Below, piece after piece: positions 2,790-63,900 of a stretch of 64,000 bases of DNA (positions within the stretch are counted from its first letter, which is position 1; each line of letters begins with the position of its first letter). The position numbers and the translations under genes were made by a program. The stretch comes from Magnetospirillum sp. WYHS-4 (lineage in GTDB: Bacteria; Pseudomonadota; Alphaproteobacteria; Rhodospirillales; GLO-3): positions 14,273 to 78,272 of the forward strand of contig JAMOBD010000005.1 of NCBI GenBank assembly GCA_039908345.1. The letters are read 5' to 3'. A model generated the notes under the pieces. The model made no database searches, had not been told where the DNA came from, and saw nothing but the letters and a program-made list of their open reading frames with translations.

Positions 2790-4409
2790 TCAGGCCGGAA
2801 GAGACTCGCGGACTTCGCTCGCCGGCCGGGCGGAATCGAGGGCCGCCGGCAGGGAGAAAAAGAAGGTGCTGCCCTTTCCCCGCTCCGACTCGACCCAAAT
2901 GCGGCCGCCATGGGCCTCGACGATCCGCTTGCAGACCGCCAGCCCGATGCCGGTCCCGTCGTATTCGTCGCGGGTATGCAGGCGCTGGAAGATGACGAAG
3001 ATGCGGTCGAAATATTCGGGCGCGATGCCGATGCCGTTGTCCCTCACGGAGAAGATCCAGAAGTCGCCATCCCGCCGCGCGGCCACATGGACTTCGGGGG
3101 GGCGTTCGCCACGGAACTTGATGCCGTTGCCGATCAGGTTCTGGAACAGGCGGAAAAGCTGCTTGTCGTTCGCCATCACCGTCGGCAAGGGCGCGTGGGT
3201 GACGACGGCCAGGTTCTCCACGATCAGCCGGGCCATGGACTCCATCACCGTGGCGAGGACATCCTCGGCGACGGTCGGCTGGCGCACTTCCGCCTGGGCC
3301 TGTACCCGCGAAACTTCCAGCAGATCCTTGATCAGCATCGACATGCGGCGCGCGCCATCGGTGGCGAAGTCGACGAATTCGATCCCTTCCGTCCCCAACT
3401 GCGGGGCGTACCGCTTCTTCAGGATCTGCGTGTAGAACGTGACGGTACGTAAAGGTTCCTGCAGGTCGTGCGAGGCAATGTAGGCGAAGCGCTGCAACTC
3501 GGCATTGGACCGTTCCAATTCCGCAGCTTTGCAAGCCAGGGCGTGGGCCGCCTTGGCCCGCTCGCTCACGTCGCGGACGGCGACCACCTGCCCGGTGGCC
3601 TTTTCGTCTTCCATGACGTCCGCCACCACGTATTCGACGGCCAGTTCCGAGCCGTCGGGGCGCAGCATGGTGGCGTCGCGCACCCGGCCACCGTTCTTGC
3701 AGGCGCCTTCCTTGAGGTGGAAGACCCGCTCCAGGGGCAGACCGAGGGCCTCCGTCCGGTCCCATTGCAGAAGCCGGGCGCCGGCCGGATTGAGATAGCC
3801 GATGATTTCGTTCCGGTCGATGACCACCACGCCTTCGCCGACGCAGTTCAGGATGACTTCGGCGCGGGCACGTTCCCGCGCCAGGGCGGCGGCGGTCCGG
3901 CCCAAGACTCGGAGCGGAATCAGCCGCAAGGGAAAGAATACTATCAATCCCAGGATCAACCCCACCACCGCCACCTTCGCCGTGCGGATGGACAACTGGC
4001 GGAAGGACTGCGCGACCTCCAGCCGCCCCACCTCGACGCCGAAGTCATGTACCGGGCGGACGAATCCAACCGCCGGCCAGGGCAGATCCCTTCCCGCCGA
4101 GGCGACTGTCACTCCGCCTCCATCCAGGAGTCGGAGGAAATGCATCTCTCCCTCGGCACTTTCCCATTCGGCATGCACCGACTGCAGCAGGGCTGCGAAT
4201 CGCGCCTCTTCGAGGCGCCAGGTATCGGGCACCTCGGCGATCTTGGCGTTGACCGCGCGCACGACGCCGTCGGACTGGGCCTCGAATTGCCCGAGATCAT
4301 GTTGATAGCCGGAAAGAAAGTAGGCGGCGGGCATGCCGGCGGCCATCAGAACCGCCAGGATGCCGGTCGCCCAGGCAAGGGAGACCTCCAAGGCATGGCG
4401 TGCATCCAT
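2790..4409 (-). CDS. Membrane sensor histidine kinase (2 TM with periplasmic domain, PAS, HisKA, HATPase_c)
   Basis: 539 aa. H-box FAYIASHDLQEPLRTV. ATPase motifs NLIGNGIKF, DNGIGI and GTGIGLAVCKRIVEAHGG. A PAS-like segment VVVIDRNEIIGYLNPAGARLL. Confidence 0.9.
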   Translation of the reverse strand: MDARHALEVSLAWATGILAVLMAAGMPAAYFLSGYQHDLGQFEAQSDGVVRAVNAKIAEVPDTWRLEEARFAALLQSVHAEWESAEGEMHFLRLLDGGGVTVASAGRDLPWPAVGFVRPVHDFGVEVGRLEVAQSFRQLSIRTAKVAVVGLILGLIVFFPLRLIPLRVLGRTAAALARERARAEVILNCVGEGVVVIDRNEIIGYLNPAGARLLQWDRTEALGLPLERVFHLKEGACKNGGRVRDATMLRPDGSELAVEYVVADVMEDEKATGQVVAVRDVSERAKAAHALACKAAELERSNAELQRFAYIASHDLQEPLRTVTFYTQILKKRYAPQLGTEGIEFVDFATDGARRMSMLIKDLLEVSRVQAQAEVRQPTVAEDVLATVMESMARLIVENLAVVTHAPLPTVMANDKQLFRLFQNLIGNGIKFRGERPPEVHVAARRDGDFWIFSVRDNGIGIAPEYFDRIFVIFQRLHTRDEYDGTGIGLAVCKRIVEAHGGRIWVESERGKGSTFFFSLPAALDSARPASEVRESLPA

Positions 4410-4413
4410 GGCC

Positions 4414-5283
4414 CTACTCCCCTTCCTTCAAGGTGACCCAGAAACCGGCGTCCCGGAGCACCTGTCGCCCCAGCCCCGACTTCAGGAAATCGACGAAGGC
4501 GACTGCCGCCTGACCGGGACGCGCCGGCAGAATCAGATGGAAAGTCTTGACGTAGGGATAGCTGCCGTCCATCGCCGCCCGCAAGCTGGGCGCCACTCCC
4601 TCGAGCGCCAGGGCCCGCAGCGGCCTGTTCTCGCCGCGGATGATCGCGAGCGTGGTCGGGCCCAAGGCGCCGGGAACGCGTGCTATCAGGTCGGCGGCTT
4701 CCTGGTCGGTGGCGGCGATGGCCATGCCGGGCCGTTCGAACGCGGATTCGACCGCCGCCGTCATGGCCGGAGACAGGGTCTTCAACTGACCGGTGTCCGA
4801 ATCGTTCGCCGGGCGCAGGATGACCCGTACCCGGCCGCCCCCTGGCCAAACCGTGGCCCGGCCCGCGTAGAAATCCGCCAACTGCCCAAGCGTCAGACCC
4901 GATGGCGTCTCGCGGGCCGTCGCCAGGACGAAGGGGCTGCGGCCCAATTCCCGCTGGACCGCACCCTGGGCCTTTTCCGCCTCCTTCAAGGGGCGGGAAC
5001 TGATGCCCAACCCGATTTCGCCGCGGATCACCCCGAGGATGGCGCCCGTGCTGCCCACGGAAGGGCGCACGACCTCGATCGCATGGGTCCCCTGGTCTTC
5101 CCGAAAGGCAACGGCAAGCCAGTCCAGCGCGCCCAAGGCCGCGCCGGTCGCCCCGATCCTCACCGTTTCCGCCTGTGCCGCCACCGGCCAACAAGCGATT
5201 ACGAAAGCCAACAGCCACCCTTCGCCCCGACGATGCAGGACGGTCGATAAGATTGAGCCCGCCACAGTTTCCCCTTCCCTCAT
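4414..5283 (-). CDS. Periplasmic substrate-binding protein (PstS/PBP-like domain), probably co-transcribed with the kinase
   Basis: Signal peptide WLLAFVIACWPVAAQA. Type-2 PBP-like features (VRIGATGAALG, ISSRPLKEAEK). The stop is 4 nt before the kinase start. The start is taken at MREGE (5283); the ORF is open to 5376. Confidence 0.65.
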   Translation of the reverse strand: MREGETVAGSILSTVLHRRGEGWLLAFVIACWPVAAQAETVRIGATGAALGALDWLAVAFREDQGTHAIEVVRPSVGSTGAILGVIRGEIGLGISSRPLKEAEKAQGAVQRELGRSPFVLATARETPSGLTLGQLADFYAGRATVWPGGGRVRVILRPANDSDTGQLKTLSPAMTAAVESAFERPGMAIAATDQEAADLIARVPGALGPTTLAIIRGENRPLRALALEGVAPSLRAAMDGSYPYVKTFHLILPARPGQAAVAFVDFLKSGLGRQVLRDAGFWVTLKEGE

Positions 5284-56706: not shown

Positions 56707-58533
56707 ATGGCAAAGAAGCAGTATAGAGACGGAGACGTCATTTTCCGCGAGGGCGACCCGAGCGACAGCGCCTATGTCATAGAGGGCGGTGCCGTCGAGC
56801 TTTCCAAGGCCAGCGACCGCGAGCCGGTACAGCTTGCGCGCCTGAAGACGGGCGAGATGTTCGGGGAGATGGGCATCCTGGACGGCAGCGGCCGCAGCGC
56901 CACGGCCGTCGCCGCCGGCAAGGTGAAAGTCCGCGAGATCGGGCGCGACGAATTCCTGAGGCAATTGGAAACCGATTCGGCCATGGCGCTATCCATCATC
57001 AGGAAACTGGTTCAGAGGCTCCGGGCCGCCGACGAAATGCTGGCCCAGGGTTCCGCCAAACAGGAAGTGGCGCGGCTGCGCCGCGATCCGACGCGGGCGA
57101 CCCGTCCCGGCCTGTTCGGACGCCTGTTCGGTGGCGGCGGCACGCCGACCGGGCGCATCGAAGTCCGCATCTCCCAGTTGCCCGGCGAAAGGGGTGCCGA
57201 ACTGACCAAGCTGCTGGCCGACACCTTGGGGCGGAGCAAGGGCCTTTCCGTGCGGCCCATCAAGGAGATCCTGGCGGTCGATGCCTCGGTCGAGCCTCCC
57301 CGCCGCCTGGCGATCGCCGCCGAAACCGGGCGGCAATGGCTGGGCCCTTTGAAGGCGGACCTGCTGATCTGGGGCGAATTTCCCGCCACCGGTGCCAGCG
57401 TGCATCTGCGTTTCGTATCAGCCCTGGTCGATCGCGCCGACCGCGCCGGGCTGTTCTCGACCGGCACGACGCTGGTCCTACCGGCCAATTTCCCGCCCGA
57501 GTTCGGCCATCTGCTGGCCGCCGTCGCCCTGGCCGCCACGGTAGTCGGTGACGAGACGCGCACGGCGGCGCAGCGCCAAGCTCTGGCCGAAGCCTTGGAA
57601 GCCGCCCAGCCCCTGATGCGGCAACTGCCCAAGGAACTGGTATCCAAGGAACGGGCGGCGATCCAGAACTGCTACGGCAACGCGGTGGCGACGCTCGCCA
57701 CCCTTGGCGGTCCGGCCGAGATGTACCAGGTGGCGGCCCATGCCTACCGTTCCGCCCTGGAGGGCCTGTCCAGGGACCATGCGCCGCTCGACTGGGCCAT
57801 GGCCCAGCGCAACCTGGGCTGCGTGCTGATGGCCCTGGCCGAGCGCACCAACGACTCCGAGACCTTGGGTGCCGCCGCCAACCTGTTCCGTTCCGTCCTG
57901 CAGATACTCACCCGGGCCGAACAGCCCTTCGAATGGGCCACCACCCAGGCCCGCCTGGGGCAGGTGCTCTACCGCCTCGATTTAAGGACCGGGGACGTCG
58001 ATCTGCTCAAGGAAGCGCTGGCCGCCCTGCAAGGCGCCTTGCAGGTGATCGGGCGTCATGACGACCCCTTGCGCTGGGCCGATCTGTTGAACAGCTTCGC
58101 CCAGACCGCGCAGGTGCTGGGTGGCGAGTTGCGCCATATCGAACTGTTGGAAAGGGCGGTGTCGGCCTGCGAGTCCGCCCTCCAGGTGCGGACACGGACG
58201 GAACATCCTCAACTTTTCGCGGCCACCCAGAACAACCGGGGATCGGCCCTGTTCCTGCTGGGCCGCCTGACCGGGCGCATGGAGCCCGTCGCCGGGGCGG
58301 CCGACGCCTTCCGGCAGGCCTGCGAGGTCTACCGCACCGAGGGCGCCGAACGCATGGCGGCCATCGCCGAGAAGAACCTCGCCCATGTGGAAGAGACCCT
58401 GCCCGCCCGCCGCTCCGAGCGTCGCGACCCCCCCGCCGGCCGCCGCGCCTGGTTCGAAGACGAGGAATCCGACCCGGCCCCGGCACCCGCGCCTCGCCCC
58501 CTGACGATCAGCCCGGAGGATAAGGTACGGTGA
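56707..58533 (+). CDS. Cyclic-nucleotide-binding domain protein fused to an unassigned middle domain and TPR-like repeats
   Basis: N-terminal cNMP-binding fold ([20 protein letters not shown]...[10 protein letters not shown].....RSATAVA). The C-terminal half carries repeated P(L/F).WA..Q.NLG units. Confidence 0.75.
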
Positions 58534-61231
58534 ACGAGAACGTCGCCCCTTCCCCCGGCCGGCTGTGCACGGCGATGCGGCCGCCCTGGCGTTCGACGAT
58601 GCTGCGGCAAATGGCCAGCCCCAAGCCGCTGCCCGACGGATTGCCGGTGCCGCCCGCCGCCAGCTGGTAGAATTTCTCGAAGATCTTGTCCTGCAGATCG
58701 GGCTCGATGCCGGGGCCGTTGTCACGGACGAAGACCGCCGCCTCGCCCTCGCCCGGCTCCATCCACATTTCCACCCGCCCGGTGCCCGGCCCGCAGACCT
58801 TCTGGGCATTGGACAACAGGTTGATGACCACCCTCGTCAGATGGTCGCGGTCGGCCCGCACCAGGGGCGAGGGAGCAGGCAGGCGCAAGTCGAGACCGAC
58901 ATCTCTTTCCTCGAATATCCCCCTCAGCGAAGCGGCAGCGTCGTTCAGCAGGCCGGCCAAGTCCAGGTCTTCCAGATGCCAATCCATCCGGCCGGCCTCG
59001 ATCTTCGCCAGGTCGAGCACCTGATTGACCAGGCGCGTGAGACGCTCGCTCTCGCGGATGACGATGGACAAGAACTCGCCCCGCTGGGTGGCGTCCAGTT
59101 CCGGGTTGTCGAACAGGATCTCGGAAAAGGAGCGGATCGAGGTCAAGGGCGTGCGCAACTCGTGGGTGACGGTGGATAGGAACTCGTCCTTCATGCGGTC
59201 CAGTTCCTTGAGTCGCTGGTTGGCGGCCTGCAGTTCCCGTGTGGCGGCTTCGAGTTCCTGGGATTTGTGTTCGAGCTGCCGGCTGTATTCGAGCACCTGG
59301 GAGGTCTCGTCCAGCACCTCCATGATCTCCTCGATGCCGATGCCCTCGCCCTGCACCGTGGTGGCGATCATCACCCGCGCCGAAGCCGCCCCGATGGCTC
59401 CGGCTAACAGCCGTTCCACATATTGCACCAGGTCGGCGTCGGCCTCGGTCCGCTTGTCGATGTCGAAGCCGTGCCGGCGGCCGAAGTCGGCGAAGGCCTG
59501 CTGGGCCCTTTCGCGGCCGATGAAGCGGGCCGCCAGTTCCCGAAGGTCGGCAACCGCGGCCTTGCCCCGCCAAGCTCCCAGGCCACGCCCCGATTCGGAC
59601 TGGCTGAAGACCTCGACGAACAGGGTGGCCTGGATACGTTCGATGGTGCTTTTGCTTCCTGCCAGCGAGACCGCAACATAGCCGCCGACATTGGCGGCAA
59701 GGCTCCAGAACAGGGAGTGCGAGATGGAATCCAGCCCCTCCAGCCCGAACAGGGCGTAGGGCTTGAGCAGGTGCAGCCCGAAGGGCCCCAGATCGACGAT
59801 GGATTCCGGCAGCCATCCCGACTTGGCGAAGGAAGGCAGCAACAGGGTGTAGGCCCAGACGGCGAATCCGGCCGACAGTCCGGCCACCGCCCCCTGGCGC
59901 GAACCGCCCTTCCAGTAGATGCCGCCCAGGATGGCAGGGGCGAACTGGGCGGCGGCCGCGAACGAGACCAAGCCGATGGTGACCAGGGCATAAGACTCGC
60001 CGATCAGCCGGAAATAGAGATACCCCAGCAGAATGATGAACAGTATGGCGCCCCGGCGGATACCCAGCAGCAGGCCGGACAGGTCGCTCCGCTCCGACAG
60101 GTGCAGGCGGCCGAAGCGCAACAGCACCGGCATGATCAGGTCGTTGCAGACCATGGTGGATAGGGCGATGGTCTCGACGATCACCATGCCGGTCGCCGCC
60201 GACAGGCCCCCGATGAACACCAGCAGCGCCAGATAGGGAGCGCCCTCGGCCAAGGGCAGGGCGAGCACGAAGGTGTCGGTGTCCAACGCCCCGCCGGGAA
60301 AGCGCAGCAAGCCGCCCAAGGTGATCGGCAGGACGAACAGGTTTATGGCGAAAAGGTAGAGCGGGAACAGCCAGACGGCCTTTTCCAGATGGCGCTCGTC
60401 CACGTTCTCCACCACCGTGACCTGGAACTGGCGGGGCAGGAAGATGATCGCCGCCATGGACAGCAGGGTCAGCGTGATCCAATTGGGACCGATCGCCTCG
60501 ACGCTCATCAGGCGGGCCAGTTGCGGTTGGGCTGCCGCCTGGCGAAACAACTCGCCGGGACTGCCGAAGATGCCGAAGGCGACGAATGCCCCGACGGCCA
60601 GAAAGGCCAGCAGCTTGACGATGGATTCGAAGGCGATGGCGGCGACCATCCCCTCGTGGTGCTCGGTGGCGTCGATATGGCGGGTGCCGAACAGGATGGT
60701 GAATAGGGCCAGCACCATGGCCACGAGCAGGGCGGTGTCCTCGAAGGGACTGGCCGACATGGGATGGGCGGCGGCCAGGTCCGGGTAGTGCAGCAACACC
60801 GCGAAGCTGGAGGACACGGCTTTCAACTGCAAGGAGATGTACGGCATGATCCCGACCACCGCGATCACCGTCACCAAGCCGCCGAGCAGGTGGCTCTTGC
60901 CGTAGCGCGACGATACGAAGTCGGCGATGGAGGTGATGTGGTGCACCTTGCTGATGCGGACGATCTTGCGGATCACCGCCCAACCGAGGGCGAACATCAA
61001 AGTGGGGCCCAGGTAGATGGGCAAAAAACCCAATCCGGTCGACGCGGCACGGCCGACACTGCCGTAGAAGGTCCAGGAGGTGCAATAGACGGCGATCGAC
61101 AGGGCGTAGATGGAGGAATGGCCGATCAGACTGCGGCCGCGGTCGGCGCGGCGGTCTCCGTAATAGGCAATGGCGAACAGCAGGCTCAGGTAGCCGAAGG
61201 AGGTGAGAAGGATCAGCCAACCCGGCAGCAC
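58508..61231 (-). CDS. Sodium:solute symporter (SSF/SLC5)-STAC-histidine kinase fusion (CbrA/CrbS-like sensor)
   Basis: 907 aa. ~13 TM SSF domain. STAC-like linker ([32 protein letters not shown]). H-box [11 protein letters not shown]. HATPase ([19 protein letters not shown]). No receiver domain. Confidence 0.85.
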
Positions 61232-61244
61232 CGTCGCCTCCCCG

Positions 61245-61493
61245 TCAGACCGAGAAGTCGAGGGGCGGCGGCTCGCGCGGCGGCGGCACCGCAGGCCGGC
61301 TGCGCATGGCCCAAGCCAGCAGGCCGATCAACAGCCCCCACGCCCCGAAGACGTAGACATAGAGCAGGGGAATACCGGCCAGAACGGTCTCCGGCCCGCG
61401 GTCGAACAGGCGCAGAACCAGGGGGCTGAATAGCGCCAAGCCCAACAGGAAGACCGCCGCCAGACGTTCGCCGGTCGCTTCTTCCCGCCACAT
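61245..61493 (-). CDS. Small two-TM membrane protein preceding the SSF-kinase
   Basis: 82 aa with two hydrophobic segments (LAAVFLLGLALFSPLVL, IPLLYVYVFGAWGLLIGLLAWA). Tightly packed between the response regulator and the kinase. Confidence 0.6.
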   Translation of the reverse strand: MWREEATGERLAAVFLLGLALFSPLVLRLFDRGPETVLAGIPLLYVYVFGAWGLLIGLLAWAMRSRPAVPPPREPPPLDFSV

Positions 61494-61494
61494 C

Positions 61495-61863
61495 TCAGGT
61501 GCCCAGCAGGTCGCGCACCCGCTGGGTCAGTTCGCGGGTGGAAAAGGGCTTGGTGACATAAGCCGTGGCTCCGAGCGCCATTCCTTTCTCCTTGTCCACT
61601 TCGCGCCCGCGGGCGGTAAGCATGATGACCTGCACGTCCTGCCAGGCCGGATTGGCACGGATTTGCTGGCAGACATCATAGCCGTCGCGCTTGGGGATCA
61701 TCACGTCGAGCAGCACCAGATCGGGCACCCGATCGGCGATGGCCTTCAGGGCCTCTTCCCCGTCGCGCGCCACCCGCACGTCGAAACCCGCCTGCCTCAT
61801 AAGGAATTCCAGCGACAGCACGATGTTCGGTTCGTCGTCCACCACCAACACGGATTTCGCCAT
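61495..61863 (-). CDS. Single-domain (CheY-like) response regulator
   Basis: VLVVDDEP, phospho-acceptor LVLLDVMIP, and ML(T)ARG..KP. Confidence 0.9.
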   Translation of the reverse strand: MAKSVLVVDDEPNIVLSLEFLMRQAGFDVRVARDGEEALKAIADRVPDLVLLDVMIPKRDGYDVCQQIRANPAWQDVQVIMLTARGREVDKEKGMALGATAYVTKPFSTRELTQRVRDLLGT

Positions 61864-61912
61864 GGCAAGCCCACCTGAAGTTTCGGGTCGGAACCGCTTT
61901 GTCGATTTTGCG

Positions 61913-61926
61913 CCATGCTAGCATGG
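61913..61926. promoter_or_regulatory. Perfect 14-bp palindrome CCATGCTAGCATGG ~50 nt upstream of the response-regulator start (candidate operator)
   Basis: Read directly from the sequence. The function is not established. Confidence 0.3.
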
Positions 61927-62079
61927 ATTACACGGGCTTTCACGCGGCCATAGTTCCTCCTTGACCGTCGCCACGGATTGTACGACCCTGTCGGGCAAAT
62001 CAAGCGAAAGTTCGTCGATATTGTGTTGAAATGTGCTACCATGGACTACATGTCGTGGTCCTTTGGATGGGAGCGGGTT

Positions 62080-62163
62080 ATGAAGCGGATGGGAACGGGA
62101 TTGGCGCTCGGCGTGGCCGCGGTGGCCCTGCTGCTGCGGCGGCGGGCGTCCGGCCTACAGTAA
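62080..62163 (+). CDS. 27-codon mini-ORF encoding a signal-peptide/TM-like sequence (MKRMGTGLALGVAAVALLLRRRASGLQ)
   Basis: GGGAG lies 6 nt upstream of ATG 62080. A hydrophobic core follows basic residues. It ends at TAA 62161-62163, and the downstream low-complexity ORF continues in the +1 frame. Confidence 0.4.
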   Translation: MKRMGTGLALGVAAVALLLRRRASGLQ

Positions 62164-62203
62164 CGGCGGGGCCGGCTACGGGCCGGCAACCTGGGGACCG
62201 GCG

Positions 62204-62686
62204 ATGCCGGGTCGGATGGGAATGCCGCAGGCGGGCTACGGCTACCGGCCGATGGCCTATAATCCGGGGACTCCCTATGCGATGGTGCCGCAGCGGCCGG
62301 CTCCCGTGCCGGTGATGGTCGGCAACGGTCCGCATCCTTCGATGATGGGGGGCGCGGTTCCCTATGGCTACGGCATGCCCTACGCCTATCGGGCGCCCTA
62401 CGGCTTCGGGCCAACCGCCCCCATGATGGCGGCGCCCCAGCCCATGTTGCCCTATCCCCAGGCGCAGCCCCGACTGGTCGGCTGGCCCGGACCGGCCGGT
62501 TTCGGCACCATGCCCATGGCCGGCAGCGGCGCGGTCAGCCGCAACCTGCCGCCTTACGCCATGGCGGTGCCGGAAGGTCCCTACGGCTACCCGTTTGGAA
62601 CGCCCTACGGGCAGTATCCCTGGGCCATGCCGGCACCAGGCCCCTATTATGGACCGGGACCGGGCTGGGGCCCGTCGCGCTGGTAA
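62204..62686 (+). CDS. P/G/Y/M/A-rich low-complexity protein
   Basis: 160 aa from the first ATG. No Lys, Asp, Ile or Cys and a single Glu. Repeated GYG, PYG and MP units. The frame is open and compositionally similar from 62084 but has no ATG, GTG or TTG before 62204. Confidence 0.55.
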   Translation: MPGRMGMPQAGYGYRPMAYNPGTPYAMVPQRPAPVPVMVGNGPHPSMMGGAVPYGYGMPYAYRAPYGFGPTAPMMAAPQPMLPYPQAQPRLVGWPGPAGFGTMPMAGSGAVSRNLPPYAMAVPEGPYGYPFGTPYGQYPWAMPAPGPYYGPGPGWGPSRW

Positions 62687-62699
62687 GCGGAAAGGGCCT

Positions 62700-62906
62700 T
62701 TAGTTGGTGGCGGAACCGGCGGTCAACTCGTTGATCGCCCAGGCTACCGCCGCCCAGCGGTTGGACAACTGGCGGTCGCCGCTGGCGCGCGAACGGTGTG
62801 CCTGTTCCACGGCAACGGCAAAGGCCCCATCGCCATAGCGGCCAATCAGGGAACTGGCCCCTTCCCGGACCTCGGTCTGGCTGACGCCGTGATGCATGAA
62901 GGTCAT
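62700..62906 (-). CDS. Small hypothetical protein, 68 aa (paralog 1)
   Basis: GGAG lies 7 nt upstream. Third positions are G/C-rich. It shares 20/62 identical residues in an ungapped alignment with the adjacent 66-aa ORF. Confidence 0.6.
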   Translation of the reverse strand: MTFMHHGVSQTEVREGASSLIGRYGDGAFAVAVEQAHRSRASGDRQLSNRWAAVAWAINELTAGSATN

Positions 62907-62963
62907 GTGACATCTCCATCAGGTGTCGGACGAATCGACACCGCGAAGATGTGGCGACCTTGG

Positions 62964-62979
62964 TTAAGGGCGGGTTAAG
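62964..62979 (-). promoter_or_regulatory. CtrA-box-like motif; the minus strand reads TTAACCCGCCCTTAAC (TTAA-N7-TTAAC)
   Basis: Read directly from the sequence. It lies 57 nt upstream of the paralog-1 start, and its 5' half-site contains the TAA stop of paralog 2. Confidence 0.5.
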
Positions 62980-63175
62980 CCCCCTGGTGCGTCATGTCGC
63001 CGATAGCGGCGGCCAAGGCGCTCCACTGGAGCGATACGGCGGCGTTGCCGCGGGCGCGGATCTGGGCGGCGCGATCCAGCGCGTAGCGATAGGCGTGGCG
63101 GCCGTGTTCCTGAATCAGCGCCATGGCGCTGTCGCGCATGTCGGGGTCCATGAAGCGATGACGGAGAGTCTGCAT
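62975..63175 (-). CDS. Small hypothetical protein, 66 aa (paralog 2)
   Basis: AAGGA lies ~8 nt upstream. Third positions are G/C-rich. It is co-linear with paralog 1 (shared H6, R14, LI20-21, G25, RA40-41, G43, W51, AI57-58, T62). Confidence 0.6.
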   Translation of the reverse strand: MQTLRHRFMDPDMRDSAMALIQEHGRHAYRYALDRAAQIRARGNAAVSLQWSALAAAIGDMTHQGA

Positions 63176-63238
63176 GAGGATCGTCCTTGTCCTGTCTTTT
63201 CCATGTCTCTTTCCATGGTCGACAGTGGTGGACCGCGA

Positions 63239-63254
63239 TTAAGGCGCGGTTAAG
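63239..63254 (-). promoter_or_regulatory. CtrA-box-like motif; the minus strand reads TTAACCGCGCCTTAAT (TTAA-N7-TTAA)
   Basis: Read directly from the sequence. It lies 63 nt upstream of the paralog-2 start, and its 5' half-site contains the TAA stop of the ABC ATPase gene. It is 275 nt from the other box. Confidence 0.45.
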
Positions 63255-63900
63255 GCACGATGAACTTTCCATGACGCAGTTCGACCCGGCGCGTCGCCAG
63301 TCGATCGACCACGCGCCGGTCGTGAGAGACCATCACCATGGCCTGGGGCAATCCCTCCAGAATGGCCAACAGCCGCTCCAGCGCCTTCTCGTCCAATGCG
63401 TTGGAGGGCTCGTCCAGCAACAGGACCTCGGGCCGCATGGACAGCACGGTCGCCAGGGTGACCAGCCGCTTCTCGCCCCCCGAAAGGCGGATCGCCACCC
63501 GGTCACGGAACTCCGGGATGCCCAGGGCCTCCAGGGTCTCGTCCACCCGCCGCGCCGCCTCGGCACGCCCCAGGCCCAGGTTGAGCGGTCCGAAAGCCAC
63601 GTCCTCGGCAACCGTCGGGCAGAACAACTGGTCGTCGGGGTCCTGGAACAGCAGGCCGGCGCGGGCGCGCACCTCGATGAAATCCTCCTCGGACCGCCGC
63701 TCCCGCCCGAAGGCCGTCACCGTTCCCGCCTGGGGATGCAGCAGGCCCACCATCAAGTGCAGCAAGGTGGTCTTGCCGGTGCCGTTGGCCCCCACCACCG
63801 CCACCCGTTCTCCCGCTGCCAGGGCAAAATCGAGGCCGGCCAGCACCGGCCGGCCGGAGTCATAGGAGAAGCCCAGACCGGAAAGGGAAAACAGGCTCAC
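63250..63900 (-). CDS. cbiO: ABC transporter ATP-binding protein, cobalt/ECF CbiO-like
   Basis: Walker A GANGTGKTT, signature LSGGEKR, Walker B LLLDEP and FQDPDDQLF. The GTG start overlaps the upstream stop (GTGA). Confidence 0.8.
   Translation of the reverse strand: MSLFSLSGLGFSYDSGRPVLAGLDFALAAGERVAVVGANGTGKTTLLHLMVGLLHPQAGTVTAFGRERRSEEDFIEVRARAGLLFQDPDDQLFCPTVAEDVAFGPLNLGLGRAEAARRVDETLEALGIPEFRDRVAIRLSGGEKRLVTLATVLSMRPEVLLLDEPSNALDEKALERLLAILEGLPQAMVMVSHDRRVVDRLATRRVELRHGKFIVP

Follow-up and report, generated by a model that had tools for sequence, protein, structure and literature searches.

A 20-nt deletion apparently splits a gene for a predicted exported Pro/Gly/Tyr/Met-rich protein in the draft genome of Magnetospirillum sp. 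WYHS-4

Results

Two reading frames at one locus

The segment 62080-62686 of the window, a 64,000-nt stretch of the Magnetospirillum sp. WYHS-4 MAG, contains a mini-ORF and, in the +1 frame relative to it, a longer ORF of strongly biased composition. The following elements are found there:

62069-62073, plus strand: Shine-Dalgarno-like GGGAG, 6 nt before ATG 62080, as read from the sequence
62080 to TAA 62161-62163, plus strand: mini-ORF of 27 codons, MKRMGTGLALGVAAVALLLRRRASGLQ
62204-62686, plus strand: 160-aa ORF, in the +1 frame relative to the mini-ORF

Re-reading of the sequence, together with ORF listing and translation, bore out the original prediction on the basic layout: a mini-ORF that starts at ATG 62080 behind GGGAG and a 6-nt spacer and stops after 27 codons at TAA 62161-62163, a 160-aa product devoid of K, D, I and C, and a second frame that is open from 62084 but startless until 62204. 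This frame opens after TGA 62081-62083, contains no ATG, GTG or TTG ahead of 62204 and reads ...CGGGRPAYSNGGAGYGPATWGPA before its first Met; its in-frame ATGs are at 62204, 62216 and 62222. A three-frame translation gives GC3 values of 0.75-0.90 for the mini-ORF frame (62070-62160) and for the second frame (~62100-62640), and both stretches therefore look coding. Random 40-codon stretches would lack a stop in ~40% of cases at 67% G+C, as estimated from base composition. An open frame alone is thus within chance, and the case rests on homology.

NCBI annotation at the locus consists of the downstream ORF alone, with its start at ATG 62216. It is H7841_03330 (P0001; 100% identity) of the WYHS-4 MAG, a "hypothetical protein" of 156 aa. 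The WYHS-4 genome was assembled and binned from Illumina MiSeq reads (BioProject PRJNA657227) of uncultured cells collected magnetically, and is graded a high-quality draft (PMC9840458). In a later paper, WYHS-4 is taken to represent a new alphaproteobacterial genus (PMC12724286).

Intact relatives

A word-indexed search with the conceptually fused protein as query returned a single relative, P0002 (255 aa). An exhaustive profile search with HMMER, covering 1.84 billion representative proteins, added two clusters, P0003 (231 aa) and P0004 (205 aa), along with three low-complexity chance matches; among these representatives the whole family amounts to four narrow clusters, that of the window included. 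Two further 255-aa members (P0014 and P0015) belong to the 90% cluster of P0002. P0002, P0014, P0015, P0003 and P0004 are each encoded by one unbroken ORF of 205-255 aa, and the P0004 gene was present in three separate sequencing runs, with assemblies identical or 1 nt apart. Sequence searches of Pfam, NCBIfam and PDB gave no match to the family. None of 255 pattern matches in genome contigs was confirmed as a further family locus, and tblastn with low-complexity filtering switched off found no paralogue of the gene elsewhere in the window.

The relatives share one layout: MKRMG..LALGVAAVALLAGGDAWA, followed by CGGGRP.., a P/G/Y/M-rich body and an RW end. Their N-terminal consensus is MKR[ML]G..L.LGVAA.ALL.GG[DE][AS]WA-CGGGRP, and conserved non-repetitive islands (YRP, PVP.MV..GP, WPGP.GFG, R[ND][LV]P..AMAVP, PYGY and YGP..G.G) lie within the body. 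The C-terminal RW and a single N-terminal Cys are invariant across the family. Comparison of orthologous loci, which the original prediction had proposed as a check, yielded a single uninterrupted ORF in all relatives; the two-ORF layout is absent from every homologue.

The deletion

Alignment to the homologues divides the locus as follows:

62080-62133, plus strand: genuine 5' part of the gene, 18 signal-peptide codons in frame 1, MKR plus MGTGLALGVAAVALL
62133-62134, plus strand: deletion junction, a 20-column alignment gap
62134-62163, plus strand: out-of-frame read-through tail, L RRRASGLQ, then TAA, mismatched to homologues in frame 1
62135-62686, plus strand: mature-protein coding region in frame 2, 183 codons, CGGGRPAYS...GPSRW, then TAA

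In DNA alignments, exactly 20 nt that all other loci possess (GCGGGAGGCGACGCCTGGGC in L003, GCGGGCGGCGATGCCTGGGC in L001) are missing from the window between 62133 and 62134. The gap is clean, with flanks identical to L003 over 33 nt upstream and 19 nt downstream, and a scan of cut positions gave one unique best cut at the junction. The 20-nt segment of L003 codes for AGGDAWA plus 2 nt of the next codon. Since 20 is 3 x 6 + 2, the deletion both takes out the AGGDAWA codons and shifts the frame. With tblastn, homologue residues 1-31 match frame 1 and end at 62133, and residues from 39 onward match frame 2 from 62135. The segment 62080-62133 corresponds to residues 1-18 in P0004 and 14-31 in P0002, and frame 2 is colinear with residues 26-205 of P0004 (51% identity), 39-244 of P0002 and 39-231 of P0003. 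Over 62134-62163, frame 2 (CGGGRPAYSN) fits the homologues' CGGGRP[SAP]YS and frame 1 does not. Both the layout of the lesion and the integrity of the orthologues are directly visible in these alignments.

Judged by these matches, the mini-ORF tail LRRRASGLQ belongs to no conserved peptide, the stretch that is open upstream of the second ORF (CGGGRPAYSNGG...) is real mature-protein sequence, and the mini-ORF and the low-complexity ORF are halves of one split gene, not two genes. The region 62135-62686 contains both the 160-aa ORF (ATG 62204) and the annotated 156-aa ORF (ATG 62216). As in other genes disrupted by a frameshift, the relatives are unbroken, the halves are colinear with them in two frames and the indel length is not a multiple of 3. 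With L003 as a proxy for the ancestor, no microhomology of the kind expected for direct-repeat slippage flanks the deletion; the junction makes (CTG)3(CGG)3, a G+C-rich triplet tract.

The suspicion that the mini-ORF supplies the low-complexity protein with its signal peptide was well placed, as the orthologues fuse both in one ORF. The proposed repair, skipping 1 nt at CAG-T-AAC (62158-62164), fails: the break lies ~25 nt upstream, consists of a 20-nt deletion and has cost the gene its cleavage region AGGDAWA. Because the break is further upstream and the signal-peptidase region is missing, a 1-nt skip cannot restore the ancestral protein. Four explanations had originally been offered, of which the indel and the recent pseudogenising frameshift survive, given the orthologues and the 20-nt gap, and translational recoding and two separate genes do not.

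The signal-peptide DNA is itself little diverged: 62080-62133 differs from L003 2404-2457 at 4 of 54 positions, against ~54% (pS) at synonymous sites elsewhere in the gene. This low divergence could reflect strong Ala/Leu/Gly/Val codon bias or a constraint on the mRNA 5' end at the nucleotide level.

Properties of the encoded protein

The window protein consists of 22% Pro, 20% Gly, 12% Ala, 10% Tyr and 9% Met. Across the family, the mature part is ~180-230 aa long with P ~20%, G 15-20%, A 12-15%, Y 8-10% and M 6-10%. The n- and h-regions of a Sec signal peptide (MKR plus MGTGLALGVAAVALL) are found in the window and in all relatives, and AF2 models them as a helix. The relatives also carry an A-x-A c-region, [AS]-W-A before CGGGRP, which the window copy lost with the deletion of AGGDAWA. 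An AlphaFold2 model of an intact homologue contains a helix at 3-40, the signal peptide, and has pLDDT below 50 for 35-255; built on a shallow alignment of 4 sequences, the model fits a mature protein that is intrinsically disordered.

The canonical lipobox is [LVI][ASTVI][GAS]C directly before the mature Cys. The relatives read D/E-A/S-W-A-C, with W at -2 and A/S at -3, off this pattern, and by its sequence context the N-terminal Cys is unlikely to be lipidated. We infer that the protein is exported by the Sec pathway, processed by SPase I with the Cys as mature N-terminus, and disordered in the periplasm or envelope. The intact relatives resemble Sec/SPase-I-exported disordered envelope proteins in their n-h-c signal peptide with an A-W-A site, in their biased mature composition and in AlphaFold confidence below 50, but have no detectable sequence kinship to any described family in Pfam, NCBIfam or PDB. 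The invariant single N-terminal Cys, the invariant C-terminal RW and the confinement to four clusters set the family apart.

A resemblance to sulfur-globule proteins, raised originally as an analogy, finds no support. Those of purple sulfur bacteria (SgpA-D) combine a signal peptide with a repetitive mature part rich in Gly and Tyr, and measure ~80-100 aa (~8-11 kDa). The family studied here is alike in the signal peptide and in Gly/Tyr richness of the mature part. Unlike the small Sgp proteins, however, it has a mature part of ~180-230 aa (183-230 aa in the individual proteins), about twice their size and dominated by Pro and Met besides, and its neighbours are flagellar or housekeeping genes, an unrelated genomic context. 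The profile search returned the four clusters and the three low-complexity chance matches and no Sgp homologue, from a library in which the presence of Sgp proteins is unconfirmed. Sulfur storage is not mentioned in the text of the WYHS-4 paper.

Upstream region

Two non-coding blocks are conserved between the preceding genes and the mini-ORF:

61960-61983, plus strand: conserved block 1, CTTGACC-N9-GATTGTAC, invariant in the window, L003, L001 and L006
62021-62061, plus strand: conserved block 2, TTGTG..TGCTACCATGGACTACATGTCGTGGTCC, from DNA alignments

Block 1 is invariant in the alignment although the upstream genes differ among the window, L003, L001 and L006, and it is a likely regulatory or promoter element. 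Block 2, which can also be written TTGTG..TGCTAYCATGRACYAYATSTCGTGGTYC, is conserved in all four lineages and includes ATG 62041, which opens a short conserved peptide (MNHISWF / MDYMSWSF). Block 2 may be a 5' leader or promoter, as TGnTAYCAT resembles an extended -10 element, or a short, perhaps regulatory, uORF. All homologous loci have a G-rich Shine-Dalgarno equivalent, AAGGGG, aligned at the place of GGGAG. Both blocks and the G-rich Shine-Dalgarno sequence are thus conserved in all four lineages and kept by the window. A scan of 61800-63300 for the sigma-70 consensus and for terminators gave no match, nor did Rfam over the whole window.

ATG 62041 was also considered as the true start of the gene. 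The window, L001 and L006 have it in frame with MKRMG. A 1-nt gap puts it out of frame in L003, L004 and L005, where its reading frame ends at a TGA overlapping the MKRMG ATG; on this ground it was rejected.

Genomic neighbourhood

Two small genes follow on the opposite strand:

62700-62906, minus strand: 68-aa gene convergent to the P/G/Y/M gene, predicted helical hairpin
62975-63175, minus strand: 66-aa paralogue of the 68-aa gene, its product 32% identical to the 68-aa protein

Copies of the 68-aa gene, 72-79% identical, lie 13-31 nt downstream of the P/G/Y/M gene in L001, L003, L004 and L006 (small-gene coordinates 4729-4935 in L001, 3049-3255 and 3314-3553 in L003, and 8728-8934 in L006). 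The two genes are paired in every locus found, with differing outer neighbours, and the 68-aa family, with 3 clusters, is as narrow as that of its partner. AF2 models the 68-aa protein as a helical hairpin (pLDDT 84). It has no match in Pfam or NCBIfam, and Foldseek against PDB returned none at E<=0.001.

Downstream of the gene, L003 repeats the order of the window, with the 68-aa gene (78-79% identity), the 66/79-aa paralogue (61%) and a cbiO-like ABC ATPase (79%). By virtue of these shared genes L003 is the positional orthologue. In the two closest relatives, L001 (gene at 3933-4700) and L006 (8001-8696), the pair lies between flgI and a radical-SAM/SPASM gene, divergent from a flagellar flgI / rod-binding / flgN / flgK cluster. 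FlgI of L001 shares 95% identity with FlgI of L006 and 88% with FlgI of WYHS-4, against ~79% for the hit ranked next, which places the L001, L006 and WYHS-4 contigs in one tight clade. In WYHS-4, flgI is on a different contig from the P/G/Y/M gene; either the pair was relocated within the clade or a second copy exists in WYHS-4.

The 20 kb upstream of the gene encode CysS, ribosomal protein S4, NAD synthase, an AFG1 ATPase, a TPR protein, a cNMP-binding protein and a histidine kinase with receiver. This is housekeeping and signalling content, not a magnetosome island. Directly upstream, on the other strand, lies an operon-like trio (61495-61863, 61245-61493 and 58508-61231, all minus) comprising a stand-alone receiver-domain response regulator (122 aa), a hydrophobic protein (82 aa) and a histidine kinase (907 aa). 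In the kinase only HisKA and HATPase_c were matched; the N-terminal ~650 residues have no Pfam match at E<=1e-5 and look like a multi-pass membrane region.

Discussion

The favoured history begins with an ancestral gene for a precursor of ~208 aa, comprising a Sec-type signal peptide (MKR, a hydrophobic core and AGGDAWA with an A-x-A signal-peptidase site), the mature N-terminus CGGGRP and a Pro/Gly/Tyr/Met/Ala-rich body of ~180 aa running to RW. In WYHS-4, a 20-nt deletion between 62133 and 62134 would have cost the signal peptide its end and put the rest of the gene in the +1 frame. Translation from the native ATG 62080 would now yield a hydrophobic peptide of 27 residues ending at TAA 62161, and the mature domain would have no start codon ahead of 62204 and no export signal.

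The NCBI annotation implies instead that two functional genes are present, one for a 27-aa membrane peptide and one for a cytoplasmic P/G/Y/M-rich protein of 156-160 aa started at ATG 62204 or 62216. The downstream ORF is indeed intact, has high GC3, offers in-frame ATGs at 62204, 62216 and 62222 and is annotated as a CDS. Yet this layout is found in no homologue, a start at the first ATG would omit the conserved mature N-terminus CGGGRPAYS..., which is encoded upstream of it, neither 62204 nor 62216 is preceded by a convincing Shine-Dalgarno sequence, and the product, though shaped by evolution for export, would stay in the cytoplasm; two genes are in our opinion very improbable. The chance of programmed recoding, a +1 frameshift or hop (e.g. 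at CAG-T-AAC) that fuses the mini-ORF to the low-complexity ORF, we put close to nil. What favours it is geometry, the +1 relation and the ORF open ahead of its first ATG. Sites of the prfB type are judged by known traits, a P-site codon capable of re-pairing and an upstream Shine-Dalgarno-like stimulator. The locus shares with prfB the +1 relation and a stop codon closing the upstream frame, but orthologue conservation, a slippery codon and the stimulator are all absent. The homologues are plain single-frame ORFs, hence there is no conserved frameshift site, and the frame change coincides with, and is explained by, the lineage-specific deletion. Recoding at CAG-T-AAC would retain RRRASGLQ, which has no counterpart in the homologues, and would not bring back the cleavage site. 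Re-pairing of the tRNA is impossible both at the stop (CAG to AGU) and at the junction (CUG to UGC), and CUA-CAG-UAA-C has no AGGGGG-like element 3-6 nt upstream. On the grounds of conservation, deletion, re-pairing and stimulator, programmed recoding was rejected.

With a probability of roughly 0.65, the gene copy of the window is a genuine recent loss-of-function allele, a young pseudogene; the deletion would then be present in the cells, which presumably make no functional product. Like other bacterial frameshift pseudogenes it has an intact syntenic orthologue, halves colinear in two frames and a premature stop soon after the lesion, and the annotation pipeline took up the longer fragment only, as a hypothetical protein. 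It differs from them in that the commoner lesion is a 1-2-nt homopolymer slip, whereas here it is a 20-nt deletion in the assembled sequence that removes exactly the signal-peptide c-region. The 183 codons of frame 2 are free of further stops or frameshifts, and the copy keeps the invariant motifs WPGPxGFG, AMAVP, PYGY and terminal RW. NG86 dN/dS is 0.40-0.48 for the window against three relatives and 0.46-0.47 for L003 against the others, a comparison that, with dS near 1, has little power to detect a short period of relaxed selection. Given no secondary decay, an unchanged dN/dS and intact upstream blocks and Shine-Dalgarno sequence, the lesion is either very recent or not real.

That it is not real, and that WYHS-4 has an intact gene coding for the full precursor with signal peptide, is an unlikely but serious contender. 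In this case the 20 nt would have been lost in library preparation or amplification, or the assembler would have taken a minor variant path. The sequence is the consensus of a MAG from uncultured environmental cells that had been enriched magnetically, and polymerase or assembly slips are conceivable in the G+C-rich triplet tract at the junction. The intact remainder of the gene, its promoter region and Shine-Dalgarno sequence and the unraised dN/dS make up the picture of an intact gene, which such an artefact fits equally well. An independent copy of the deletion allele was not found: a degenerate junction-spanning DNA pattern allowing a 0-20-nt gap, run against genome and metagenome contigs, gave unrelated GC-rich matches only (Dietzia and others). 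Against an artefact, 20-nt deletions are rare with Illumina chemistry and atypical of its errors, and repeats around the junction are far below assembler k-mer length. A non-systematic look at the window's large ORFs noticed no obviously split gene; those of 907, 758 and 713 aa are uninterrupted.

What the draft MAG has at this locus is an ordinary broken or mis-assembled gene, and novelty is limited to the obscure protein family involved. The deposited 156-aa hypothetical protein is a fragment, and the locus should be flagged as frameshifted or the assembly corrected. It also provides a clean example of how a few orthologues suffice to resolve such a locus without invoking recoding.

A more far-reaching reading, which we hold to be improbable, is that the intact family represents an undescribed two-gene module of one genus of magnetotactic spirilla, in which the exported disordered P/G/Y/M-rich protein and the convergently encoded 68-aa helical hairpin have a specific envelope or periplasmic role. 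If so, the role might be, for example, that of a metal-binding or matrix protein based on Met, Cys and aromatic residues, and WYHS-4 would be a natural knock-out or would express a signal-less cytoplasmic version from ATG 62204 or 62216. The locus in any case points to a very small, lineage-restricted family of predicted exported, disordered Pro/Gly/Tyr/Met-rich proteins in uncultured magnetotactic bacteria.
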